Below are positions 5,611 through 24,269 of a stretch of 27,455 nt of DNA, piece after piece. Numbering within the stretch: the stretch's first letter is position 1; every line of letters begins with the position of its first letter. The DNA is from a phage. A program made the position numbers and the translations under genes. The notes under the pieces are model-generated. The model searched no databases, was not told the origin of the DNA, and saw only the letters and a program-made list of their open reading frames with translations. The DNA lies in the NCBI GenBank assembly GCA_011944185.1, contig GCA_011944185.1_3921.2; one strand, given 5' to 3'.

Positions 5611-6651
5611 ATGGAGAAGTACACATTAACAAAACTTCCAGATTCAGTTACACATGTCTTTATTGACTCTGACAGCATTGCCTATAAAGGTGCTTGTGTA
5701 GTTGAGAAAGCAAAGTATAAATACGTTAATAAACTCACAGCAGAAGAATCTGAACCATTTGATAATGCGAAAGATGCTGCAAGATGGTTAGCAGACCAGA
5801 GAATCCTTGTGGAAGAGCTTGGCCTGACATTTGATGAAGATGAATGGGAAAGACAAACTTGGAAAGAAGCTAAGAGTGAAAAAGAAGCTATCATGGCTAC
5901 TCAACAGGTGCTTCAGGAATGGCTTAAGGTTGTTGGTAAAGAAAGAACTTGGGTAGGTTATTTAACAGAGAAGGGTGTGCATAAACATAAAGACATTAAA
6001 GGTCTTGAGCACCAATATCAAGGTAACCGTAAAGATGCCGTCACACCAACACACTTAGTCGCTTGTCGTGAATACCTTTTATCCAGACCAGAGTTCAAGC
6101 TCTTAAAGGGAGGCTTCGAAGCCGATTCAATCGTAATTGCTAAAGCTGAAAAGATGGGTAAGAAGGCTGCTCTTATGAGTATTGACAAAGACCTTCGACA
6201 AGCTGAAGGAACTTATTGTATTGACATGACTTATGAAAAATCACCACTAATCTTTATTGCTGATAATAATGTTGGTGATATCTGGGATTGTCCTATCAAA
6301 TCAAAACCAAAAGCTGCAAAAACAGTTGGTGTAGGTTTTAAATTCTTGTGCTATCAGGCTGTTGCTGGAGATAATGCAGATAACTACTTTGGCCTTAAAG
6401 GTGCTGGTAAAGTAGCTGTGATGAATGCTTTAGATGGTAAAGAGACCTACAAAGAGTGTCTTGATGCTATCTATGAACTCTATGCTAAAAAAGACTCTTA
6501 CACCTATGTATCATGGGATGGACAGATTGTTACAAAGACACCGTTAGAGCTAATGGAACAGCATTTCTTCCTAGCTTATCAAGAAAGAAATCCAAAAGAT
6601 AATTTCTCTTTTAAGAAATATAATTGGGAGCCGTGTATGAATGAAGATTAA
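5611..6651 (+). CDS. 5'-3' exonuclease / flap endonuclease (FEN family, T5 D15-like)
   Basis: N-terminal VFIDSDSIAYKG resembles the FEN PIN-domain start; FEADSIVIAKA resembles the EADD acidic motif; GDNADNYFGLKGAGKVAV fits the H3TH motif GDxxDNxxGxxGxGxK. RBS GGAGAG before the ATG. Confidence 0.65.
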   Translation: MEKYTLTKLPDSVTHVFIDSDSIAYKGACVVEKAKYKYVNKLTAEESEPFDNAKDAARWLADQRILVEELGLTFDEDEWERQTWKEAKSEKEAIMATQQVLQEWLKVVGKERTWVGYLTEKGVHKHKDIKGLEHQYQGNRKDAVTPTHLVACREYLLSRPEFKLLKGGFEADSIVIAKAEKMGKKAALMSIDKDLRQAEGTYCIDMTYEKSPLIFIADNNVGDIWDCPIKSKPKAAKTVGVGFKFLCYQAVAGDNADNYFGLKGAGKVAVMNALDGKETYKECLDAIYELYAKKDSYTYVSWDGQIVTKTPLELMEQHFFLAYQERNPKDNFSFKKYNWEPCMNED

Positions 6652-7138
6652 AGGATTTGGCAATTGTCCTACCTATGGACATTGGGTATCTTTATGTGGG
6701 GAAGTTGACCCCACTAAACATTTTGGTTTTGTCTATTTAGTACACTGTAAGAAGACCGGACAATATTATATCGGAAAGAAACAGCTTAACAGTGTGACCA
6801 AAAGAAAAGTTGCTGGGAAGACTCGGAAGAAGGTAGTCACTAAGGAAAGTGATTGGATGACTTATGAGACTTCTTCTGAGTATATTAAAAAAGATATTGA
6901 GAGCTTTGGAAAAGAATTTTTTGACTTTTACATTATTCAAACCTACTACACAAAAGGTGGTCTAGTTTATGGTGAAGCAAATCTCCAACATAAATTCGAT
7001 GTAATGACAAAAAGGATTGACTCTAAGCTCAGACTCTTCTACAATGCCAATATTGCAGCAATTAAGTTTATCACTAAAGAAACTTATGAAGATGCTGAAA
7101 AAAGAATCCACAAGGTAATGAAAGCAAATTGTGCTTGA
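6641..7138 (+). CDS. putative GIY-YIG endonuclease-like protein
   Basis: GFVYLVHCKKTGQYYIGKK near the N-terminus fits the GIY-(10-11 aa)-YIG spacing of GIY-YIG nucleases (compare I-TevI GIYQIKNTLNNKVYVGSA). Start overlaps the exonuclease stop. Downstream catalytic Arg/Glu not confidently aligned. Confidence 0.4.
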   Translation: MKIKGFGNCPTYGHWVSLCGEVDPTKHFGFVYLVHCKKTGQYYIGKKQLNSVTKRKVAGKTRKKVVTKESDWMTYETSSEYIKKDIESFGKEFFDFYIIQTYYTKGGLVYGEANLQHKFDVMTKRIDSKLRLFYNANIAAIKFITKETYEDAEKRIHKVMKANCA

Positions 7139-12924: not shown

Positions 12925-15069
12925 ATGAACAAAGTACAGATTATTAAAAAGAATGGCTCACTTGAAGAACCTGATATCAAAAAAGTTTTAGCGGCAGTAA
13001 CAAAGTCAGCTAACAGGGTTGGATATAAAGAACTGCCACCAGATGTTACCCAAGCTCTTGAGTCAGCATTCATGAGGATTTTGGTAAAGTCCACTAAGCA
13101 GAATAATTTGCTTATCTCGGTAAATGATATTCACAGTATTGTTGAAGGTGCTTTGGCAGAGGTCAATCACGAGATTTATGAGTCTTACTCAACATACAGA
13201 AATTACCGTAAAGAGGTTGCTCAAAATTGGGACGAACTCTACCAGAAGACTAAAGATACACTCTTCTTAGGTGACCGTGAAAATGCTAACTTTGACAGCA
13301 GTTTAATTTCTACGAAAGGTTCAATTATCCGTGGTTACCTGACTAAAGAAATCTTTAAACAGTATCATCTAACACCAGAGGAACTTGAAGCCATTGAGAA
13401 AGGCTTTATCTATATCCACGATTTGAGAGACCTGATTTTTGGTGGTATTAACTGTTGCCTGTTTGACATTGGTAAAGTACTAAAAGGTGGCTTTGAAATG
13501 TCCGGCATTGAGTACTGTGAACCTAAATCTGTACTGTCAGCGTTGCAGGTTATTGGTGACGTAGTACTTTCAGCAACTGCACAGCAATTTGGTGGTTTTA
13601 CTTTAGCAGAGATTGATAAGGTACTTGTACCGTATGCTAAGAAGTCTCTACGCTATCATGCTGAGAAAGCATCATCTTATGGTATTCCTAAAGAGCATTA
13701 CCACAATTATGTAATGGAGCAGTTACAAATTGAACTGACTCAAGGTTTTCAGTCACTTGAGATGAAACTAAATACCGTACCTTGTAGCCGTGGTGATTTT
13801 GCATTCACAACTTTAACATTTGGTTTACTTGACTCAGATATGTCTAATGAGGATAATCGACTACAATACATGATTGCAAGTACTCTCCTAGATGTTCGTA
13901 TGAATGGACAAGGCAAGAGTAAAAAGCCTGTTGTATTCCCTAAACTGGTTTATATTTATGACCAGAAGAGACATGATGAAAATATCTGTCAAGGTCACCT
14001 GTACAGTAAAGCTATTGAGTGTTGCTCTAAAGCAATGTACCCAGATTTCTTAAGTGTGTCTGGTCATGGTGCTGTAGCAGAGGCTTTTGAGCGTTCTGGT
14101 AAGGTAATTTCACCGATGGGTTGCAGAGCCTTTTTATCTCCATATCTTAATGAGGGTGGAGAAGAGTTCTACGTTGGTCGTGCTAACATTGGTGCTGTAT
14201 CTTTGAACTTACCAATGATTTACCAGTATTCTAAAGAGAATGGTTTAGATTTCTGGAAAGAGCTTGATAAGTACCTAGAGATGATTCGCAACTTCCACAA
14301 GAAACGCTACGAAATGATTGCTAATATGCCAGCAAGTTCTAACCCTCTTGCGTTCACACAAGGTGGTCTGTACAAAGGAACTAAGAAACCTACTGACAAG
14401 GTTGGTTGGGATATTGTGAAGTCCTTCACAGCTTCTTTTGGTGTTACTGCGCTTGATGAGTTGTCTGTTCTTGCTGAAGGTAAACGACTTCATGAAGTTG
14501 GAAGCTATAGTTTTGCATACGATGTTCTGGCATACATCAACATGAAAACTGAAGAGTTTAAAAATGAAGATGGCTTCTTATATGCCGTCTATGGTACTCC
14601 AGCAGAATCACTTTGTGGAACTCAGCTAAAACAGTTCAGAGATATGTTTGGCGTTATCAAAGGTGTTTCTGATAAGGAATACTTTACAAACAGTTTCCAT
14701 ATGAATGTTGCAGCAGACATCTCACCATTTAAGAAGCAGGACTTAGAAGAGCCATTCTTCCATATCTGTAGAGGTGGGAGAATCCAGTATGTCAGGGTAG
14801 CTAACCCAGAAAACTTAACAGCACTTAAAAGCTGTATTACAAGAGGGATGTTGAAAGGTTTCTATCAGGGGCTTAACTTTGACTTAGCAATCTGTGAACA
14901 TTGTGGTAACAGACCAAAGGCTGATGTTGAAGAATGTGAAGTTTGTCACTCACATGATATCTCTGTGATTAACAGGGTGTGTGGGTATCTTGGATGGACT
15001 AAGATTAAAGGTGAATCCCGAATGAACGATGCAAAAATCGCTGAGATTCGTGACAGAGTTTCTATGTAA
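12925..15069 (+). CDS. nrdD: anaerobic ribonucleoside-triphosphate reductase (class III)
   Basis: N-terminal ATP-cone-like segment (IIKKNGSLEEPDIKKV); C-terminal Cys4 zinc ribbon (CEHCGN...CEVCHSHD) followed by the glycyl-radical motif RVCGYLG; 714 aa. Confidence 0.9.
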   Translation: MNKVQIIKKNGSLEEPDIKKVLAAVTKSANRVGYKELPPDVTQALESAFMRILVKSTKQNNLLISVNDIHSIVEGALAEVNHEIYESYSTYRNYRKEVAQNWDELYQKTKDTLFLGDRENANFDSSLISTKGSIIRGYLTKEIFKQYHLTPEELEAIEKGFIYIHDLRDLIFGGINCCLFDIGKVLKGGFEMSGIEYCEPKSVLSALQVIGDVVLSATAQQFGGFTLAEIDKVLVPYAKKSLRYHAEKASSYGIPKEHYHNYVMEQLQIELTQGFQSLEMKLNTVPCSRGDFAFTTLTFGLLDSDMSNEDNRLQYMIASTLLDVRMNGQGKSKKPVVFPKLVYIYDQKRHDENICQGHLYSKAIECCSKAMYPDFLSVSGHGAVAEAFERSGKVISPMGCRAFLSPYLNEGGEEFYVGRANIGAVSLNLPMIYQYSKENGLDFWKELDKYLEMIRNFHKKRYEMIANMPASSNPLAFTQGGLYKGTKKPTDKVGWDIVKSFTASFGVTALDELSVLAEGKRLHEVGSYSFAYDVLAYINMKTEEFKNEDGFLYAVYGTPAESLCGTQLKQFRDMFGVIKGVSDKEYFTNSFHMNVAADISPFKKQDLEEPFFHICRGGRIQYVRVANPENLTALKSCITRGMLKGFYQGLNFDLAICEHCGNRPKADVEECEVCHSHDISVINRVCGYLGWTKIKGESRMNDAKIAEIRDRVSM

Positions 15070-15223: not shown

Positions 15224-15424
15224 ATGTTTAAAATATCAAAAGCGTTGATATACATTCTCCACATTCTAATCTTCTTCTTTGGGGTTAGTGTTATGGTATG
15301 GGGTTTTTCAGACCCACAATGGAGTTTCGCATATCAGGGTCAGATGGATTTATGGTCATGCTTCAAACCATTTTTAGGGTTAGTCATAGCATTCAGTGCA
15401 TTGCCAACTAAGGTGAAATTATGA
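15224..15424 (+). CDS. small hydrophobic (membrane) protein
   Basis: 66 aa, hydrophobic (ILHILIFFFGVSVMVWGF; FLGLVIAFSAL); GAGG RBS. Confidence 0.4.
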   Translation: MFKISKALIYILHILIFFFGVSVMVWGFSDPQWSFAYQGQMDLWSCFKPFLGLVIAFSALPTKVKL

Positions 15425-15816
15425 TTAAGTTGAACAAAAAACAGTTAGAGTGGATTAAAGATTATGCCTCAGAGTGTGGCTCTTGCGAAAAGAATCACGT
15501 AAGATATTCAACATTCCATACGACCTTCACATTGTACATCAGCGACAACGTTCTAAGTGATTCCGTAGAAGATGGTGTAGCGTTACCTAATGAATTGCTT
15601 GACAAATTAGCTGTAGTCTCTGGAACTTGGTCTGAAGAAGACGGTCATGAATTATCTAACGATGTTGTCTTCTACACTCTTGAAAACATTATGAATCCAG
15701 AGTACATTATACTAATGACTTGTGCACAAGATTGTGTGCCATTACAAAACTTCATTAAAGAACACTGCGAAGAATTTATTACTAAACAGGTTCCTTGTCA
15801 GGTGGTGTTTGAATGA
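15421..15816 (+). CDS. hypothetical protein
   Basis: 131-aa ORF; AAGGTGAAA RBS; ATGA overlap with the upstream gene. No motif recognised. Confidence 0.5.
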   Translation: MIKLNKKQLEWIKDYASECGSCEKNHVRYSTFHTTFTLYISDNVLSDSVEDGVALPNELLDKLAVVSGTWSEEDGHELSNDVVFYTLENIMNPEYIILMTCAQDCVPLQNFIKEHCEEFITKQVPCQVVFE

Positions 15817-16719: not shown

Positions 16720-16986
16720 ATGGGAATTTTAGGTAATATGAAAGCTGGATTCTTGAAGGCACTGGCAAAAGCAGCAGCAATTGTTGCTATGACTGGAAAG
16801 CAGGTCGGTGTGGATGCTTCAGCGGTTGCACAGGTTCTTACAAGCCAAATTGAACAGCAGCCTTACATCTATGTAGGCCGTGGCAAAGGTGGTAAGAAAC
16901 AAGCCCACCGTCCGTCTGGTGCAGCAGCTATTAAACGAGCAGCTAAGAAAGCTCGTAACCGTAAACGTAATAAGAAGGCTAGATAA
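16720..16986 (+). CDS. small protein with hydrophobic N-terminus and polybasic C-terminal tail
   Basis: 88 aa from the first ATG; the ORF track starts at a TTG at 16642 and reads through the GA repeat as (ER)n. N-terminal GFLKALAKAAAIVAMTG; C-terminal GGKKQAHRPSGAAAIKRAAKKARNRKRNKKAR. Confidence 0.45.
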   Translation: MGILGNMKAGFLKALAKAAAIVAMTGKQVGVDASAVAQVLTSQIEQQPYIYVGRGKGGKKQAHRPSGAAAIKRAAKKARNRKRNKKAR

Positions 16987-16988
16987 CC

Positions 16989-17300
16989 ATGAGCAAAATC
17001 TATAACACTCGTAAATTACAGATTGCAATCCTGTGCCAGTTTATGGCTGATAAGCACAACTCACACTATTGTGGTACAGGTTTCCTTATGCAAGGTCGTG
17101 GCTACATTAGCTTCAAAGAAGCTGTGAAGATGTACAATGAGCACCCTGAAGATGACAAAGAGTTGAAACAACTGAAGCTTACTTATGACAAGAAGCGTAA
17201 GAAAATTGTATGCTTGAACAACCTTATCAAGCAAACTGAAAACGTTTATGATGCAATTGGTGAAGAGGGTTTCTTAAAAGTCTTGAAAATAGCTCAGTAA
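16989..17300 (+). CDS. hypothetical protein
   Basis: 103-aa ORF followed by a perfect terminator. No motif recognised. Confidence 0.45.
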   Translation: MSKIYNTRKLQIAILCQFMADKHNSHYCGTGFLMQGRGYISFKEAVKMYNEHPEDDKELKQLKLTYDKKRKKIVCLNNLIKQTENVYDAIGEEGFLKVLKIAQ

Positions 17301-17312
17301 ATGTATATGATT

Positions 17313-17341
17313 AGGGAACTGTAAAGGTTCCCTTTTTATTT
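17313..17341 (+). terminator. Rho-independent terminator
   Basis: Perfect AGGGAAC / GTTCCCT stem with 7-nt loop, followed by TTTTTATTTT. Confidence 0.65.
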
Positions 17342-17351
17342 TGGAGATAAT

Positions 17352-17867
17352 ATGTATCTGTCAAATCTGAAACGTTCTGCTGCAATGTCAGTGTTAAGAC
17401 TCAGTTTTGAGGAACGTCAAGAGTTCATTGACTCCCACCAATACGACCCTTCCAACTCCAATCACATGATTCTCTGGAATCGTGAGAGTACTCGTGAAAG
17501 AGCATTATTTCGATATTACCCACACTACACCATAGACAACCTGTATGAATGTTTTGTTGTGAAGAACACCATTACAGTACTCAATAAACTTTGCAGATAC
17601 ACAGGCAGTCAATCCTTCACATTAGGCCACCACAATCCTGTTACAAAAGGTGGTGAACATCACTGTGCAAACTGGTTTATTCAGACTAAAGCTGATAACC
17701 AGAAGCAAGGAGATAGTCTTTTAAGTACCCCTAAGATGACCTATGAAGAGCAAGAGAGATATATCAAAAATAATATGCCAGATGTGCTTGACAACAACTA
17801 TACAGATTTGGCAATATCTCTCCTGTTGAAGTTCGAGATAGTTTATAGGGCAACTTACAATGGCTAA
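17352..17867 (+). CDS. putative HNH (His-Me finger) endonuclease
   Basis: LCRYTGSQSFTLGHHNPVTKGGEHHCANWFIQTKADNQKQGD fits the HNH pattern C..C...HH.P...GG...N...N.K; GGAG RBS. Confidence 0.5.
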   Translation: MYLSNLKRSAAMSVLRLSFEERQEFIDSHQYDPSNSNHMILWNRESTRERALFRYYPHYTIDNLYECFVVKNTITVLNKLCRYTGSQSFTLGHHNPVTKGGEHHCANWFIQTKADNQKQGDSLLSTPKMTYEEQERYIKNNMPDVLDNNYTDLAISLLLKFEIVYRATYNG

Positions 17868-18138
17868 AGAAAAGTGGGAGATTTTACCATTAGTCAGTGA
17901 AGGTGGTAATGGTTGTGAAATGTACATGATACGTGGTCATGTTCCAGAGCCAATTGCACTTGAGATGGTAAACAACTTTACAGATGGTTCTTACAAAGAC
18001 TTAGGCGAACCAACTGTCAAGCAACAATGGGTTAAACCTGTACCAGACAGCACAGGTAACTGTAGTGTACTTTATCACGTTGTAGACCCTGCAAAATGCA
18101 AATCTGCAATGGCAGTAACAAACATAACTTTTGATTGA
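17860..18138 (+). CDS. hypothetical protein
   Basis: 92-aa ORF overlapping the upstream stop. No motif recognised. Confidence 0.45.
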   Translation: MAKEKWEILPLVSEGGNGCEMYMIRGHVPEPIALEMVNNFTDGSYKDLGEPTVKQQWVKPVPDSTGNCSVLYHVVDPAKCKSAMAVTNITFD

Positions 18139-18149
18139 GAGAGAAAACT

Positions 18150-19031
18150 ATGAAAACATCTATACGTGTTACAGTTCATTCACCAACTAAAGGAACTCAT
18201 GAAGAAGAGTTTAACATCATCCAATTTCCTTCTGGTGAGATTGGTGGACACTTTTCGCCAGAGTTTGTTGATTTCACTGCTTATGCAGCATCATCCATCA
18301 ACAATGTGATTATGATTGTAAAAGGTTATGATAAGGACACATTGTTTGCTGTGGCACTTGCTAAAGAAGCAATTGATGATTTAATTCCTCACGATTATGC
18401 TTTAAAGACTGTCATCTTTTACTACTTACCAAATGCACGATATGACCGTCACATGTTTAAAGGCGACGCAGCAGCTTTAAAGGTTTTTGCTAAACAGATT
18501 AATGCAATGGGGTTTGGCGCAGTCTGTGCAGTTGACCCTCACAGCTATGTACCAGATAACCTGTTTAACTGCTTCCAGAGTATTCCTCAAAAGGAAATTG
18601 CAGTCCACTATGCAAATGACCCACTGATTGATTACTTAGTAGCCCCAGATGCAGGTGCTGCTAAGAAGATTGCAGAGACTGCTAAAGAGGTGGATAAACC
18701 ATACATCACAATGTCTAAGGTGCGTAACCTTAAGACTGGTGAAATTACTGGTATGCGAATCCTTGATGATGTTGATTTGACAGATAAAACCGTTATGATT
18801 CTGGATGATATCTGTGATGGTGGTCGAACCTTCATAGAAGCAGCGAAACATCTTCGTGAAGCAGGTGCAAAACGTGTGGAACTTTATGTAACACATGGTA
18901 TCTTCTCTAAAGATGTTGAAAACCTTCTTGACAATGGTATCGACCATATTTACACTACAAACTCTTTAGGCGAAGCTAAAGACCGTGGCTTAACACATTA
19001 TGGTCAAGTTACTGTAGCGAACCTTGATTAG
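18150..19031 (+). CDS. ribose-phosphate pyrophosphokinase (Prs)-family protein; PRPP synthetase or ADPR-pyrophosphate synthetase-like
   Basis: C-terminal half aligns with E. coli Prs as I recall it: VAPDAGAAKKIAE...VMILDDICDGGRTFIEAAKHLREAGAKRVELYVTHGIFS vs VSPDIGGVVRARA...[38 protein letters not shown]; DPHS resembles the Prs DLHA motif. The PRTase loop reads DGGRT where I recall DTGGT in Prs. The ORF track starts at a TTG at 18135; I prefer the ATG at 18150 after GAGAGAG. Confidence 0.75.
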   Translation: MKTSIRVTVHSPTKGTHEEEFNIIQFPSGEIGGHFSPEFVDFTAYAASSINNVIMIVKGYDKDTLFAVALAKEAIDDLIPHDYALKTVIFYYLPNARYDRHMFKGDAAALKVFAKQINAMGFGAVCAVDPHSYVPDNLFNCFQSIPQKEIAVHYANDPLIDYLVAPDAGAAKKIAETAKEVDKPYITMSKVRNLKTGEITGMRILDDVDLTDKTVMILDDICDGGRTFIEAAKHLREAGAKRVELYVTHGIFSKDVENLLDNGIDHIYTTNSLGEAKDRGLTHYGQVTVANLD

Positions 19032-19039
19032 GTAACAGT

Positions 19040-19531
19040 ATGAATAAGGGTTATTTTGAAAAATACCTAATATATGAACCAGATACAGGTTTATTAATTT
19101 GGAGAGTAACCCTTTGCAGTACCGCTATTGCTGGTAATGTGGCTGGCACAAAGTCTAAGAAGGGTTATATCCAAGTCCAGATAAATAAGAAGAGGTACTA
19201 TGCACATAATATTGCATGGATTATGTCTGGAGGTGAGATACCAAGTGGATATGAGATAGACCACATAGACCTTGATAAAGCTAATAATAAGTTGGAGAAT
19301 TTAAGACTTAGCACAAAGTCACAAAATCAGAGGAATAGGGGTATACACAAGAATAATAAAACTGGTGTGAAGGGTGTAAGTTTTTGTAAACAAACAGGTC
19401 TTTACAAAGCAAGAGTCATGCTTTACCATAAAGAATACTTTTGTGGAAGATTTAAAACGGTAGAAGAAGCAAAAGAAGCTGTAATTAAAAAGCGAATAGA
19501 ACTTCATGGTGAGTTTGCAAGACATAACTAA
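19040..19531 (+). CDS. free-standing HNH homing endonuclease with AP2-type DNA-binding domain
   Basis: YAHNIAWIMSGGEIPSGYEIDHIDLDKANNKLENLRL matches the HNH_3 pattern; C-terminal KTGVKGVSFCKQTGLYKARV...FKTVEEAKEA resembles an AP2 domain. Inserted between two functionally linked genes (Prs-like and Nampt-like). Confidence 0.75.
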   Translation: MNKGYFEKYLIYEPDTGLLIWRVTLCSTAIAGNVAGTKSKKGYIQVQINKKRYYAHNIAWIMSGGEIPSGYEIDHIDLDKANNKLENLRLSTKSQNQRNRGIHKNNKTGVKGVSFCKQTGLYKARVMLYHKEYFCGRFKTVEEAKEAVIKKRIELHGEFARHN

Positions 19532-19545
19532 GAGAGAGATAAAAT

Positions 19546-21327
19546 ATGAGTAAGTCACTTTACGCAGTACCAGCAGGTCTTAATGCAGATGCTTACAAGG
19601 CATCACATATATATCAGTATCCAGATGCTACGCAATATCTTATGTTAAACCTGACACCACGTAGTGATAAATGGTTTAACAGCCCTTTAGCAATTGACGG
19701 TGTAGTGGCTTTTGGTATTCAACGTTTTGTTAAAGATTACTTGATAGACCACTGGAACGCCACCTTCTTTGAACGTGACAAAAAAGAAGCAATTGACGAA
19801 ATCTTAGAAGTCATGAACGGTGTTCTGGGTAAAGATGCTATCGGTAGAGAACATTGGGAAGCACTTCACGACTTAGGCTATCTACCAGTTGAAGTATACG
19901 CTGTAGAAGAAGGCACAGTTGTTCCTATGCGTGTACCAATGATTGTCTTCCAGAACACTGTTTCAGGTTTCCATTGGGTAGCTGGGTATCTGGAAGATGC
20001 TTTCTCTGCTGAGATTTGGAAGGCTTGTACCATTGCAACTATTGCATTGCACTACAAACGTATCTGTAAGAAGTGGTCTGACCTTACTTGTGACAACGAC
20101 TTGCATTTGCCTTATCAGTGCCATGACTTTGCTATGCGTGGTATGTCCGGCTTTACTGATGACGCATTTAACGCTGTAGGCCACTTAACCAGCTTTAAAG
20201 GAACTGATAGCTTCCCTGCTGTATATACAGCTAAACGCATCTATGGACAGTCCTACCCAATCTCTGATATTGGTAGCTCTGTACCAGCCACTGAACACTC
20301 TGTGATGTGTGCAAACATTGCTTGGGAAGGTGGTAATGAGTTGGTTGAAGAAGAAAGACGCTTTAAAGGTGAGTTGCAAACCTTCCGTCGCTTCTTAACA
20401 GAAACTTATCCAACTGGTATTGCAAGTGTTGTTTCAGACACTTATAACTTCTGGAGAACTGTGTCAGAAATCTTACCAGCACTCCGTAAAGAAATTATGG
20501 AACGTGATGGCAAACTGGTAATTCGTCCTGACTCTGGAGACCCTGTACACATTGTCACAGGTTATAAAGCAATCCACTTAGAGTGTGCTAAAAAGGCTTA
20601 TTATGAGCACCTAAGCAATCTGGAAGCCAGTGACACAATGCTGAATGCTGTTCTGAACATGAAGCTTGAAAACATCAGCTATGGTATTGCTGGATGGCTA
20701 CTGTCAGAAGGCTACGAAATGGTTGTTGACAGAGAAGACTTTGAAGTTGCTGATACAGTGATGTTGAAGAACGCTTATATGGTTGGTTCTGCAAACGTTG
20801 TAACACGCCCTGTAGCAGAGATTGATGGAGCTATTAAGACCTTGTATAACATCTTTGGAGGAACTATTAACTCTAAAGGTTTTAAGGTACTGGATGAGCA
20901 CATTGGCCTTATCTATGGCGACTCTATCACGTTGGAACGTGCAAACGAAATCCTGAAGCGTCTGTATGAAATGGGGTTTGCAAGCTCTAACGTGGTGTTT
21001 GGTGTAGGCTCTTACACTTACCAGTACATGACTCGTGACACCTTTGCATTTGCTGTCAAAGCAACTCTTGCAAGCATTGGTGGCAAAGAGATTATGCTTG
21101 CAAAAGACCCTAAAACAGATAGTGGTGTTAAGAAATCTGCCTTTGGTGGTGTAGCACCTATGTGGGATGGTGAGAATTTGAAAGCTGTAGATGGCTATGG
21201 ATTCCAGAGCTTTGCAGATGCACTTGAACATCCAGCTTGTGCTTTACGTTTAGTCTTTAGCGACTCTGAGCAGTACGGTTACACAACTCTTGGTGATATT
21301 CGAAATAATATTGACAATCAGCTTTAA
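19546..21327 (+). CDS. nicotinamide phosphoribosyltransferase (Nampt/NadV)-family protein; possibly nicotinamide ADPR-transferase-like
   Basis: N-terminal LNADAYKASHIYQYPD fits the (D)xYKxxH signature of the Nampt/NAPRTase family; 593 aa; AGAGAGAG RBS; followed by a terminator. Catalytic residues not individually verified. Confidence 0.7.
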   Translation: MSKSLYAVPAGLNADAYKASHIYQYPDATQYLMLNLTPRSDKWFNSPLAIDGVVAFGIQRFVKDYLIDHWNATFFERDKKEAIDEILEVMNGVLGKDAIGREHWEALHDLGYLPVEVYAVEEGTVVPMRVPMIVFQNTVSGFHWVAGYLEDAFSAEIWKACTIATIALHYKRICKKWSDLTCDNDLHLPYQCHDFAMRGMSGFTDDAFNAVGHLTSFKGTDSFPAVYTAKRIYGQSYPISDIGSSVPATEHSVMCANIAWEGGNELVEEERRFKGELQTFRRFLTETYPTGIASVVSDTYNFWRTVSEILPALRKEIMERDGKLVIRPDSGDPVHIVTGYKAIHLECAKKAYYEHLSNLEASDTMLNAVLNMKLENISYGIAGWLLSEGYEMVVDREDFEVADTVMLKNAYMVGSANVVTRPVAEIDGAIKTLYNIFGGTINSKGFKVLDEHIGLIYGDSITLERANEILKRLYEMGFASSNVVFGVGSYTYQYMTRDTFAFAVKATLASIGGKEIMLAKDPKTDSGVKKSAFGGVAPMWDGENLKAVDGYGFQSFADALEHPACALRLVFSDSEQYGYTTLGDIRNNIDNQL

Positions 21328-21341
21328 AAGTATATGATAAG

Positions 21342-21364
21342 AGGCTCCTACGGGAGCCTTTTTA
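21342..21364 (+). terminator. Rho-independent terminator (TACG loop)
   Basis: Perfect AGGCTCC-TACG-GGAGCCT hairpin followed by TTTT. Confidence 0.65.
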
Positions 21365-21380
21365 ATTTCTGGAGAAGATT

Positions 21381-21716
21381 ATGAAAATCAAAGAGATGAA
21401 CATCAACATTGTCTTAGAAGAACGTTGGGAGAATATTAAGAAACCTGAAGATGGTAAAAAGTTCCTTAACAAAATTTTAGTAGCAGCTAAAGAAGAACTG
21501 ACTGGCAAGATTGCAGCAGCAGTCACAATAAAAGTTTGTGTAAAAGGTCTTCCAGACAACCACCAATTTGCGCTTGACGAGTTTAAAAAAAGCTTCTACA
21601 ATCCAAACAAACAGATGCTTGAAAGTAACTTTGCAGTATCTACAAGTATCGTCCATGACAGAAGCTTTATCCTTTACAAAAATATGAGAGGTGAGTCATG
21701 CAAGCATATTGGATAG
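21381..21716 (+). CDS. hypothetical protein
   Basis: 111-aa ORF; GGAGAAG RBS. No motif recognised. Confidence 0.5.
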   Translation: MKIKEMNINIVLEERWENIKKPEDGKKFLNKILVAAKEELTGKIAAAVTIKVCVKGLPDNHQFALDEFKKSFYNPNKQMLESNFAVSTSIVHDRSFILYKNMRGESCKHIG

Positions 21717-21874
21717 AAATTTTACTGTCACTTGGCAGCGTAGCAGTATTTGTTTACCTTCTTTGCAAGTACTATGCAGAGTACAAGAAGTGTGATTACT
21801 GCAATGGGGAAGGGTATACAAGAGCAGGTTGTTGCCCTATGTGTGGTGGTTCTGGTAAAATGTTTAATAAGTAA
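21698..21874 (+). CDS. small membrane-anchored protein with tandem DnaJ-type CxxCxGxG zinc-finger motifs
   Basis: 58-aa ORF absent from the supplied track: hydrophobic N-terminus (WIEILLSLGSVAVFVYLL) then CDYCNGEG...CPMCGGSG, two CxxCxGxG repeats. AGGTGA 5 nt before the ATG; overlaps the upstream gene end. Confidence 0.45.
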   Translation: MQAYWIEILLSLGSVAVFVYLLCKYYAEYKKCDYCNGEGYTRAGCCPMCGGSGKMFNK

Positions 21875-21902
21875 TTTAACAGTAAACTAAGAGGAAAGTA
21901 TT

Positions 21903-24269
21903 ATGCGCATGGTAAATGACCACGCAGAAGTGATTAAGAGTTCAACTTCTTTAGAGACGTCTCAAGCACAGATTACAATGACACCTGAGATGTTCAGCCT
22001 TTTGAGTTCTGGTGTGTATACCTTTAAAGAAAGGGCAGTGATTCGTGAACTGTCATGTAACGCAGTAGATGCTCAGAAAGAAGCTGGAAAAGAGAACATT
22101 CCATTCCATGTGCATTTACCTACTCGTTTTGAGCCTTACTTCGAAGTTCGTGATTTTGGAACTGGATTGACTCATGATAAAGTTATGAGTTTGTACCTAA
22201 ACTATGGAGCTTCTACGAAGAATGACTCTAATGACTACATTGGTGCAATGGGTATCGGCTCAAAGTCACCATTTGCAATTGCTCAGTCATTCACAGTATC
22301 TAGCTATGTTGACGGTGTTGTTAATAAGTACTCTGTTTATCTTGAGAATGGTATCCCTCAAGTAACTAAGCTGACAACTAACCCAACAAAAGAACCTAAT
22401 GGTTTAGCTGTACGTGTGGCAGTTGCTGACCACCGTATCTCAAAGTTCTTTGAAGAAGCTGGGAATGTGTACTCATACTTCACTGTAAAACCAGAAAGTA
22501 ATATTGAGTACGACGATATATTAGCAGATATGAACGTCATTGCCCGTGAAGAAGGTGTTTATGATGCCATGATTCATAAGCAAAGCTGGCGTTCTGGCGC
22601 TAACAGAACAGAGTTTAATGTGGTGATGGGTAACATTGCCTACCCTGTTAACATGGAAGCATTACTTGGAGATGATTTCTTCAAAGTATTGCCAGAATTT
22701 TTCCGTAGGAGCGTAGACCTTGTAAACATCTACATGCCTATTGGTTCAGTTGCTATTGCAGCTTCTCGTGAAGCATTGCAGATGAATGACACGACAAAAA
22801 ATGTTATCATTGAGGCTACTAAAAAGATAACTGAAGCCATTACAAAGGATGTTATCAAGAAAGTTAATAGCCAACCTACACTCATGGATGCTGCACAGGC
22901 TTATGCTGAGTTACGTTTGAACTCACGAGAGATGTTTAATGCTGTGTGTCCAAAGCTAGAGTGGGGAGGCGTTAAGCTTGATTCTCTGGAAGAAGAATTA
23001 CTAAACATTCGTCGTGGGATTATCTACGCAGAAGACGGCTCAGTCATTTATGAACGTGACGGTAAAGGTAATATTAAGGTTGATAGGAACGGAAACAACA
23101 TCCCTAAAGTAGATTTTCTTTATGACCCAGTTGCTTATGTCAAGTTCAACTCTTTAGAGAGTAAGATTCGTGCAACAGCACTTTCCTACACTCAAGAGGC
23201 AAGTATGTTCAATATCTTTGGTGCAATGCGTAAAAGCCAAATTGAACAGTTTTTGTTCGTGATTAATGACCGTCGCAATAAAAATGGTACTGAGAAGACT
23301 GTAGGACGAAATCAAATCTTGCGTGGTGCATGTCGAGACTACGCTAACGAGTCAGGCCTGTTCCACAGATACAATGGCATTGTGTTTGTATTCTCGACTG
23401 AAAAAGAGTTAGACGACCTAATCAACCTACACAAACTTGATAAAAGCTTGTTAAAGATTGTGAAGATGTCTGATAAGGAACATCACTATCAGCGTAAAGA
23501 AGCTGTAAGAGGTGTTGTAAAACTCTGGAAAGCTGTTCCAGCAGAAGGTGTAGCTTCCTATAAAGAGGTTTCAGAGGACTTTGATACAATTGAAGAACCT
23601 CAGCTTTACATTAAGGCAGTTGGTGACACAGTTGATGGTAGATGTTTTTGCTCATCTCCAGAAGATGTAGCTAAGTCAGTTGCTAATGTTACAGGTAAGA
23701 CAGTCTATGTTTTCCGAAAAGCAAATTGGAAAAAGATACCAGAAGACTGGATTGAAGTAGATGAGCAACTCTTGAACGATAGCTTAACTGATGTTCACTG
23801 GATTAATCATAACAGGTATATGACACGCATCTACATGAATGGTGTTCTTGACCTTACAAGCAGTTGGATTATTGCCAGAAACTTTACATTCAATAACAGG
23901 AAGATTTCTCGTGGCTATTGCTATTCACGAGATACTAGCAAAACTATCTTCCTAGAAGGTAATGAAGAGGCTGTAGAGGCTATGTTCGGTAAAATCCAAT
24001 ACGTTGCTGCACCATTTGCATACACTTATACTATTAGTAGATTGCAAACTTTGAAAGAATGCCTTGACAATGACACAAAACTGTACAAAAAGATTAAAAA
24101 AGCAGGTGACCGCATGGTTATCAAGCTGACAAACTATCTTTCAAAAAGAAAACAAGAAAACTTCTTGCTTTCACACTTAGATTGGAATAAAGTATCACCT
24201 ATCGAAGTGAGTAAGTTTTTAGGCTTTAATGTGAAATGTGTTCCAGAAGGTACAACAATTTACGATTAA
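21903..24269 (+). CDS. rIIA: rIIA-like protein (GHKL/HATPase_c-type ATPase domain at N-terminus)
   Basis: GHKL motifs: IRELSCNAVDA (N box), VRDFGTGL (DxGxG), IGAMGIGSKSPFAIA (G box). Segments FSLLSSGVYTFKERAVIRELSCNAVDAQ, NDYIGAMGIGSKSPF and PIGSVAIAASREALQMNDTTKNVI match my recollection of T4 rIIA; 788 aa. Confidence 0.75.
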   Translation: MRMVNDHAEVIKSSTSLETSQAQITMTPEMFSLLSSGVYTFKERAVIRELSCNAVDAQKEAGKENIPFHVHLPTRFEPYFEVRDFGTGLTHDKVMSLYLNYGASTKNDSNDYIGAMGIGSKSPFAIAQSFTVSSYVDGVVNKYSVYLENGIPQVTKLTTNPTKEPNGLAVRVAVADHRISKFFEEAGNVYSYFTVKPESNIEYDDILADMNVIAREEGVYDAMIHKQSWRSGANRTEFNVVMGNIAYPVNMEALLGDDFFKVLPEFFRRSVDLVNIYMPIGSVAIAASREALQMNDTTKNVIIEATKKITEAITKDVIKKVNSQPTLMDAAQAYAELRLNSREMFNAVCPKLEWGGVKLDSLEEELLNIRRGIIYAEDGSVIYERDGKGNIKVDRNGNNIPKVDFLYDPVAYVKFNSLESKIRATALSYTQEASMFNIFGAMRKSQIEQFLFVINDRRNKNGTEKTVGRNQILRGACRDYANESGLFHRYNGIVFVFSTEKELDDLINLHKLDKSLLKIVKMSDKEHHYQRKEAVRGVVKLWKAVPAEGVASYKEVSEDFDTIEEPQLYIKAVGDTVDGRCFCSSPEDVAKSVANVTGKTVYVFRKANWKKIPEDWIEVDEQLLNDSLTDVHWINHNRYMTRIYMNGVLDLTSSWIIARNFTFNNRKISRGYCYSRDTSKTIFLEGNEEAVEAMFGKIQYVAAPFAYTYTISRLQTLKECLDNDTKLYKKIKKAGDRMVIKLTNYLSKRKQENFLLSHLDWNKVSPIEVSKFLGFNVKCVPEGTTIYD

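Follow-up and report, generated by a model that had tools for sequence, protein, structure and literature searches.

What kind of gene separates two otherwise adjoining phage genes, and how did it come to lie there? This question is raised by a phage contig of 27,455 nucleotides (nt) (GCA_011944185.1_3921.2 of GenBank assembly GCA_011944185.1; this whole stretch is called the window), in which an open reading frame (ORF) lies between a Prs-like and a Nampt-like gene. An original prediction, made from the sequence alone, described the ORF as an intergenic homing-endonuclease insertion. Our analysis supports this view, chiefly through the polymorphism of the ORF at a single site and its horizontal spread across genera. 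Sequence comparisons, a structural model and analogy with known systems make it very probable that the ORF is a free-standing homing endonuclease gene (HEG) of the HNH(N)-AP2 class. The ORF is intact and comprises both domains, the encoded protein is under purifying selection, and in the window the gene lies within a recombinant patch and next to a short block of the downstream gene to which it is linked. The upstream flank is called adps below (prs in the comparisons) and the downstream flank namat (nadV); genomes with and without the ORF are referred to as HNH+ and HNH-.

An intact HNH nuclease joined to an AP2 domain

The ORF (Table 1) matched the Pfam family HNH_3 (PF13392) over the complete profile (positions 1-46 of 46; E=5.5e-19, 68 bits against a cut-off of 24.8) and was assigned to phrog_99, "HNH endonuclease", in PHROG (E=1.9e-68). 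As a single sequence it scored below the cut-off of the Pfam AP2 family (PF00847; E=4.8e-4, 20.8 bits against 33.3, profile positions 1-53 of 54); a precomputed PF00847 match is found in many of its homologues. Because the single-sequence AP2 score was weak, a family profile was built from an alignment of 65 sequences collected by a homologue search. This profile matched I-HmuI (1U3E) over residues ~30-105 (E=1.9e-9) and plant AP2/ERF structures over residues ~108-160 (WRI1 7WQ5, E=3.4e-11; TEM1 7ET4, 2.7e-7), with further AP2/ERF matches to ERF096 (1.3e-4) and AtERF1 (1.5e-3). A phmmer search of the PDB with the single ORF sequence returned nothing at E<=1, I-HmuI included. Residues D74, H75, N87, R89 and N96 of the core are invariant across the 65 homologues, as is N99 (nt 19334-19336), one residue past the HNH_3 core, and in the family profile the DH...N...N residues align with those of 1U3E.

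The AlphaFold2 model of the 163-aa protein was confident for both domains (mean pLDDT 94.6). Foldseek ranked 1U3E first among PDB structures (E=1.6e-4, probability 1.00); the whole-chain TM-score to this structure is low (0.48) because the C-terminal domains differ. The C-terminal part of the model forms a three-stranded antiparallel sheet and one helix (strands 113-116, 121-128 and 131-138, helix 141-159), and can be superimposed on the AP2 domains of AtERF1 (1GCC; root-mean-square deviation (rmsd) 1.4 A over 49 columns) and TEM1 (7ET4; rmsd 1.2-1.3 A over 47 columns). Taken together, profiles and model confirm that the ORF encodes an intact nuclease of the I-HmuI type, with an H-N-N active site, fused to an AP2 domain. 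All 9 of the HNH copies compared are full-length (163 aa) and the ratio of nonsynonymous to synonymous substitution rates (dN/dS) is ~0.1, which indicates purifying selection on the protein.

The ORF is free-standing, since it lies between the stop and start codons of separate, complete genes and an Rfam scan of the window revealed no RNA family, group I and II introns included. A location inside an intron or intein is ruled out by the separate ORFs and the absence of Rfam matches. A tblastn search of the window with the HNH protein found no paralogue within its 27 kb. The description of the ORF as a free-standing HNH endonuclease with a C-terminal AP2 domain was thus borne out by Pfam, by the 65-sequence profile and by superposition of the model.

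A single site, occupied in about a quarter of the phages

The ORF is separated by 8 nt (19032-19039) from adps and by 14 nt (19532-19545) from namat, a trivial correction to the gaps of 9-15 bp originally given; the location itself stands. We compared the junctions of 31 fetched loci, 9 of them HNH+ and 22 HNH- (wV8, SP22 and 20 others), by reading them directly, as MAFFT had placed the empty-site alleles wrongly. In these loci homology to the insert-free genomes breaks within the adps stop codon and restarts at GAGAGAGA (19532). The HNH-specific cassette stands in for ~32 nt that contain a conserved hairpin (GGGGCTTAAAAGCCCC followed by ATTTT), and the distance between adps and namat amounts to 517-521 nt in HNH+ loci versus 47-52 nt in HNH- loci.

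The layout was the same in every HNH- genome compared: the adps stop codon (TGA or TAA), then AACTTTATA-GGGGCTTAAAAGCCCC-ATTTT and finally GAGAGAGATTAAAAG-ATG. Every HNH+ genome compared had a TAG stop codon, ~8 nt, the ORF and then the common GAGAGAGA Shine-Dalgarno region. The hairpin of the empty site has a 6-bp G+C stem, after which comes a short run of T (dG -12.6 kcal/mol, z=-3.1). Felixounavirus and the Moogle and SUSP groups all share it, and what variation there is lies mainly in the loop. No comparable structure was found at the HNH+ junctions.

The stretch from prs through the HNH gene to nadV matched 258 phage records, nearly all from Felixounavirus and its sister genera (top match phiWec177, 96.9%). 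The HNH gene itself was found in 62-64 phage records. When a probe joining the 3' end of the HNH gene, the spacer and nt 1-115 of nadV was used, 253 records were matched, contiguously in exactly 62. Carriers therefore make up 62 of ~253-258 records with the locus (~24%). As had been predicted, related phages without the insert exist: comparison of relatives at this junction found both presence and absence among the fetched loci, and insert-free alleles are the majority, so that the ORF is not carried by every related genome.

Exchange of the element between genomes

The HNH gene is shared by phages whose flanking genes are considerably more distant. The HNH proteins of Moogle and phiSUSP1 are 89-92% identical to that of the window, against 73-76% for Adps and Namat; at the nucleotide level their HNH genes are 90-95% identical to the Felixounavirus copies and their flanks 75-81%. 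HNH- relatives (L025, L026, L029-L031) are present within the genera of Moogle and phiSUSP1. A more remote homologue (56% identical) occupies the adps-namat junction of Pectobacterium phage Arno162.

The window itself offers a clean natural before/after pair. Its flanks are nearest to those of HNH- phages (L005, L027, SP22 and wV8; 97-98%), and its HNH gene is 99.2% identical to the copies of Si3 and VpaE1, phages with 93-95% identity in the flanks. Comparison with the HNH-free IMG/VR contigs L005 and L027 revealed no mismatch over 16983-18163 (1.2 kb) or over 20305-23413 (3.1 kb). The recombinant patch enclosed by these tracts is centred on the cassette, to which it adds flank of donor type, as much as ~870 nt on the upstream side and ~760 nt on the downstream side. 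Informative sites between 18884 and 19914 all match the HNH+ phages Si3 and VpaE1 and not the backbone; apparent informative sites at 19498-19545 were ignored as artefacts of aligning the hairpin with the 3' end of the HNH gene.

At least 12 distinct Felix O1-like contigs of two genera, with HNH+, HNH- and mosaic adps-namat alleles, were found in a single IMG/VR metagenome, 3300045988 (contigs L004-L006, L011, L012, L014, L016, L017, L021, L026, L027 and L031). Since donors and recipients occur together there, ongoing exchange is plausible.

A block of namat linked to the HNH gene

A search for single-nucleotide polymorphisms (SNPs) associated with the ORF was performed on 6 HNH+ and 18 HNH- Felixounavirus loci, with statistics that ignore phylogeny. 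It yielded 16 columns in which allele frequencies differ by 0.8 or more, each of them within nt 1-100 of nadV (19546-19645). The same 6 and 18 loci had no such column in 1100 nt on the upstream side or in the remaining 1680 nt on the downstream side, and the last 100 nt of adps contain variable sites, none of which is linked to the HNH gene. The plus and minus types of this block differ at ~27 of 100 positions, amino-acid changes among them: the plus-type protein reads M-S-K...Y-K-A-S-H-I-Y-Q-Y-P-D and the minus type M-T-K...Y-K-S-G-H-V-Y-Q-Y-P-S. The core of the block encodes DxYK..H.YQYP, a motif conserved at the N-terminus of Nampt-family proteins, where it belongs to the substrate site; the register relative to human NAMPT comes from an alignment with that protein.

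The plus-type block was found in 113 database records, 84 of them at 95% identity or more, and it is contiguous with the HNH gene in all 62 HNH+ records. About 36 HNH- records carry a block that is at least 90% plus-like, and 37 records match the minus type over nt 1-53 only. In the HNH- phages EC6/L009, L011 and L021 the hairpin is still present, and namat begins with 18-53 nt of minus type before it switches to plus type. In Moogle and phiSUSP1 the tract of high identity stops ~60-66 nt into nadV. Judged by their sequences, the HNH- mosaics have the appearance of short conversion tracts, with the block at their centre, that fell short of the HEG.

The start of namat is therefore a candidate cleavage and immunity site, or else a co-converted flank. 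If the element homes, its target could quite possibly be the 5' end of namat in HNH- phages, at codons ~17-32, with the plus-type block conferring immunity.

A homing model and its alternatives

In the intronless homing of phage T4, a neighbouring gene of the HEG-less phage is the presumed target, flanking sequence is converted along with the HEG, and sequence polymorphism protects the HEG+ genome. I-HmuI is a nicking endonuclease. By analogy with the T4 seg/mob genes and with I-HmuI, the following course of events can be proposed. During mixed infection the AP2 domain would attach the protein to a specific site in a co-infecting genome that lacks the gene, and the I-HmuI-like H-N-N site (D74/H75/N96) would nick or cut this genome. 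Recombinational repair from the HNH+ genome would then copy the 502-nt cassette together with the adjoining flank, and the HNH+ genome would be immune through the differing sequence of its own site. The lesion may be a strand-specific nick rather than a double-strand cut, as predicted from an active-site layout like that of I-HmuI. It is on such analogy that we infer nuclease activity, site specificity, the choice between nick and double-strand cut, and transfer driven by the endonuclease.

Several findings weigh against this model or restrict it. The SNP association comes from just 6 HNH+ and 18 HNH- genomes and is uncorrected for phylogeny. Arno162 is HNH+ and has a minus-like K-S-G-H motif in namat (with an enzyme only 56% identical), so the proposed immunity block is not universal. 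Within the recombinant patch, a run of informative sites at 18517-18834 matches the L005 backbone, and the patch may therefore be composite. Two further mosaic patches, at 15522-15760 and 23414-24098, distinguish the window from L005 and are free of any HEG; ordinary recombination alone thus makes such patches, and the patch around the HNH gene is no proof of endonuclease-driven conversion. The two main HNH allele types of Felixounavirus are 10% apart at the nucleotide level, more than their flanks (~5%), so the gene is more than a recent invader and has also long been resident; these comparisons indicate that the element is both old and recently exchanged. Finally, the literature searched yielded no biochemical or genetic test of this enzyme.

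The two HEG-free patches comprise 40 and ~60 SNPs in a genome pair (the window against L005/L027) that is otherwise identical. The first lies in a hypothetical gene (15421-15816) and the second in the 3' part of rIIA (21903-24269); no endonuclease gene is present at either patch in the window. From such sequence comparisons, short-patch recombination is pervasive in Felix O1-like phages.

The same enzyme might have a different target, namely the intergenic hairpin (GGGGCTTAAAAGCCCC) of the empty allele, which the insertion would destroy while the namat block merely hitch-hikes. In classical intron and intein homing the insertion does destroy its own target. The cassette replaces the hairpin precisely in every HNH+ genome, and the hairpin is the only G+C-rich element of an A+T-rich spacer and is conserved across genera; moreover, AP2 domains typically bind G/C-rich motifs such as the GCC box, and a cyanobacterial HNH-AP2 protein reportedly binds poly(dG)/poly(dC). 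However, the linked SNPs lie downstream only and so do not surround the insertion point symmetrically, with no HNH-linked site in the last 100 nt of adps, and the HNH- mosaics retain the hairpin plus 18-53 nt of minus type before the plus-type block, a pattern that a break within the block would readily leave and one at the hairpin hardly. As these short plus-type tracts do not reach the HEG, a target inside the block is favoured, and we regard the hairpin as the main alternative, though a rather doubtful target.

It is improbable, in our judgement, that the ORF is simply a resident nuclease which has lost homing or never had it, and whose patchy occurrence results from ordinary recombination among co-circulating Felixounavirus genomes. 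Its role would then be to degrade DNA of competitor phages or the host, or to alter expression of the flanking operon by removal of the hairpin, a function to which we give an equally small chance. The HEG-free patches, nearby and of similar size, show how pervasive recombination is; two old allele types coexist; a dN/dS of ~0.1 fits any functional protein; and the loss of a terminator-like hairpin must alter the transcription or translation coupling of adps and namat. Against this, the junction is constant across four Ounavirinae lineages despite very different divergence of the flanks, the HNH gene is far better conserved between genera than its surroundings, and it is completely linked to one short flanking block. 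These three features form the standard signature of site-specific invasion by a HEG and not of random recombination. Least probable of all, and very unlikely indeed, is that the ORF represents the inactive remnant of a HEG in decay: degeneration of HNN-AP2 genes is often seen in other phages, as in Xanthomonas phages Xp10, OP1 and Xop411 (PMC2248197), and one draft assembly (P0004) contains a truncated version of 109 aa, but the uniform length and low dN/dS of the copies compared, the presence of all family-invariant residues of catalytic type and a model confident for both domains speak for an intact gene.

Insertion within a probable NARP1 anti-defence operon

The flanking genes had been predicted to be Prs-like and Nampt-like. 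Pfam and PHROG agree with this, and the structure matches of the downstream protein together with gene order in phage Bas63 point to a more specific identity: most likely, on sequence grounds, they are the NARP1 pair Adps/Namat and not classical Prs/Nampt. In the PDB the downstream protein matched SpbetaL1 Namat (9W5W/9W5X) with E=4.5e-128, against ~1e-41 to 1e-52 for true Nampts. NARP1 is a two-gene operon characterised in Bas63 (JohannRWettstein), a Felixounavirus, in which Adps and Namat rebuild NAD+ from ADP-ribose (ADPR) and nicotinamide and so counter NAD+-depleting defences (10.1101/2024.02.11.579819; PMC8594841). Genes 79 and 80 of Bas63 share Pfam signatures (PF14572; PF18127 + PF04095), order and genus with the flanks in the window; they are consecutive, whereas the pair in the window is split by the HNH gene, and an HNH-free allele is thus implied for Bas63. 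The NARP1 preprint contains no mention of an endonuclease (10.1101/2024.02.11.579819).

Comparison of the loci thus places the HEG in the middle of an anti-defence operon, with the internal hairpin removed, in a quarter of Felix O1-like phages. An operon whose anti-defence function has been validated experimentally is split by a HEG in roughly a quarter of a phage group that is widely used for biocontrol and typing of Salmonella and E. coli. A further, speculative and rather unlikely possibility is that the HNH-AP2 protein targets the DNA for the N-terminal motif of Namat (codons ~17-32), so that an arms race drives the exchange of NARP1 alleles. If so, HNH+ phages would carry an immune, recoded block, and ~15% of the HNH- phages would possess resistant "mosaic" alleles, having taken up the block but not the HEG. 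With every homing event, up to 1-2 kb of adps and namat would be swapped, the hairpin lost and expression of the operon rewired. Selfish elements would then be seen to reshuffle counter-defence alleles, the quarter of Felix O1-like phages concerned would form a natural system for studying the effects of HEGs on counter-defence genes, and the locus would be a further case of nuclease genes marking the boundaries of genetic exchange between phages (compare PMC10448857). Target and immunity sequences are predicted concretely and can be tested cheaply.

Table 1. Coordinates in the window of the HNH-AP2 gene, its flanks and associated features
Feature	Position	Strand	Basis or remarks
HNH-AP2 endonuclease ORF	19040-19531	+	ATG to TAA, 163 aa
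Shine-Dalgarno AGGT of the HNH-AP2 ORF, weak	19030-19033	+	
HNH_3 nuclease core, H-N-N type, I-HmuI-like	19196-19333	+	residues 53-98
AP2-type DNA-binding domain	19361-19510	+	residues 108-157; three strands then long helix
HNH-specific cassette, 502 nt	19030-19531	+	junctions of 31 loci
Ribosome-binding region of the downstream gene, retained, GAGAGAGATAAAAT	19532-19545	+	common to insert-free genomes
HNH-linked block, first ~100 nt of namat	19546-19645	+	allele-frequency association
Block core, codons 17-32, D-A-Y-K-x-x-H-x-Y-Q-Y-P motif	~19594-19641	+	
Recombinant patch relative to L005/L027, ~2.1 kb	18164-20304	.	mismatch clustering
Prs-like gene, most likely Adps (ADPR pyrophosphorylating enzyme of NARP1)	18135-19031	+	PF14572, PF00156; phrog_619 E=3.4e-97
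Nampt-like gene, most likely Namat (nicotinamide ADPR-transferase of NARP1)	19546-21327	+	PF04095 + PF18127; phrog_448 E=1e-201

A scan of the window for promoters and terminators gave 15 sites against 10.0 +/- 3.5 in shuffled sequences; the matches are at the level of consensus only and none exceeds expectation. One of them (TTGACA-17-TACACT, 18928-18956) lies within adps. At 21311-21338, overlapping the 3' end of namat, lies a sigma-70-like promoter close to consensus (TTGACA-16-TATGAT, 11 of 12 matches), and directly 3' of namat there is a strong terminator-like hairpin (21339-21362) with a 10-bp stem, AAGAGGCTCC-TACG-GGAGCCTTTT.

Relation to known phages and enzymes

The window belongs to a Felixounavirus, that is, a Felix O1-like myophage. 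Over its full length, the highest identity to GenBank phages was ~94-96%. The exact 37-mer of its upstream junction had 0 matches in IMG/VR, so that no identical allele is present there. The ORF is an orthologue of Felix O1 ORF128 (NP_945017; 90% identity), and orthologues of ORF128 in Mushroom, VpaE1, Si3, pinkbiff, Moogle, phiSUSP1 and others represent the same gene at the same junction. Nucleotide identity of the HNH gene ranges from 90% to Felix O1 up to 99.6% to phiWec172/174/177 and ULIM9. The copy in the window resides in a wV8/SP22-like backbone, which differs from the Felix O1-like or VpaE1-like backbones of other carriers.

The label "HNH (homing) endonuclease" is already attached to ORF128 orthologues in dozens of GenBank genomes. 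Six HNH endonuclease homologues have been noted in the Felix O1 genome (PMC3185647), and the part of Magnani et al. (2004) relayed in PMC5318435 lists "Bacteriophage Felix 01" among the original HNH-AP2 examples. The class (also HNN-AP2) is known from Xanthomonas phages Xp10, OP1 and Xop411 (PMC2248197) and from RB49 and RB43, for instance RB49 ORF040c (PMC1524935). The members of this class in phages and cyanobacteria resemble the ORF of the window in having an N-terminal H-N-N domain without Cys dyads and a C-terminal AP2 domain, and in being free-standing and dispersed. The motifs D/H, DNR, NLR and EN described for the Xoo phages (PMC2248197) correspond to D74-H75, N83, N87-L88-R89 and N96. 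A mapped cleavage site for a close member of the class was not found in the literature searched.

I-HmuI of Bacillus phage SPO1, the top match of both profile and structure for residues ~30-105, has the same DH...N...N active-site layout, but is intron-encoded and carries helical, helix-turn-helix (HTH) DNA-binding modules at its C-terminus in place of AP2; identity is only ~18%. SegF, SegG and MobE of T4, examples of intronless homing, resemble the ORF in being encoded between two conserved genes. They differ from it in nuclease family or DNA-binding module, the Seg proteins being GIY-YIG enzymes. The gene, its class and the homing-endonuclease label are thus already known from databases and literature, and novelty in this respect is low; as a textbook free-standing phage HEG, the gene matters little in itself. 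What is added here is the census of carriers, the anatomy of the insertion, a natural comparison of recipient and donor, a hypothesis on target and immunity, and the NARP1 context.

Other putative nucleases and empty sites in the window

The original prediction counted three putative free-standing nucleases in the window, namely the HNH-AP2 protein, a GIY-YIG-like one (6641-7138) and an HNH-like one (17352-17867). The first two were supported and the third was not. The gene at 6641-7138 matched Pfam SegE_GIY-YIG (E=9.4e-28). As 215 of 231 related records contain it, it behaves as a conserved gene, with no presence/absence signal of a HEG. In several RefSeq and PHROG annotations it is called "NAD synthetase" (phrog_447), apparently a mislabelling.

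The gene at 17352-17867 gave no Pfam HNH match even at E<=5, just one to DUF7167 (E=0.005), and a weak PHROG HNH match (E=3.2e-4); it is conserved in HNH+ and HNH- relatives alike. The neighbouring ORF at 16989-17300 is named "putative HNH homing endonuclease" in several GenBank records and matches only DUF7390 (E=1.1e-15). Judged from these profile matches, the nuclease labels of both look unsupported.

Two further places in the window correspond to uninterrupted alleles of sites that other phages have occupied. For a second, paralogous HNH-AP2 HEG the window has an empty site at 6641-6651, where a 5'-3' exonuclease gene (5611-6651) meets the GIY-YIG-like gene: an HNH gene of ~490 bp is found there in pinkbiff, VpaE1, EC6, dune, BPS15Q2 and others, and the product of the pinkbiff copy (gene 109) is 39% identical to the HNH protein of the window. 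The anaerobic ribonucleotide reductase gene nrdD (12925-15069, 714 aa) is likewise uninterrupted in the window; in pinkbiff (pinkbiff_97) and in Mushroom it is split by a free-standing I-HmuI-like HNH gene, as was noted for Mushroom in PMC4392139.

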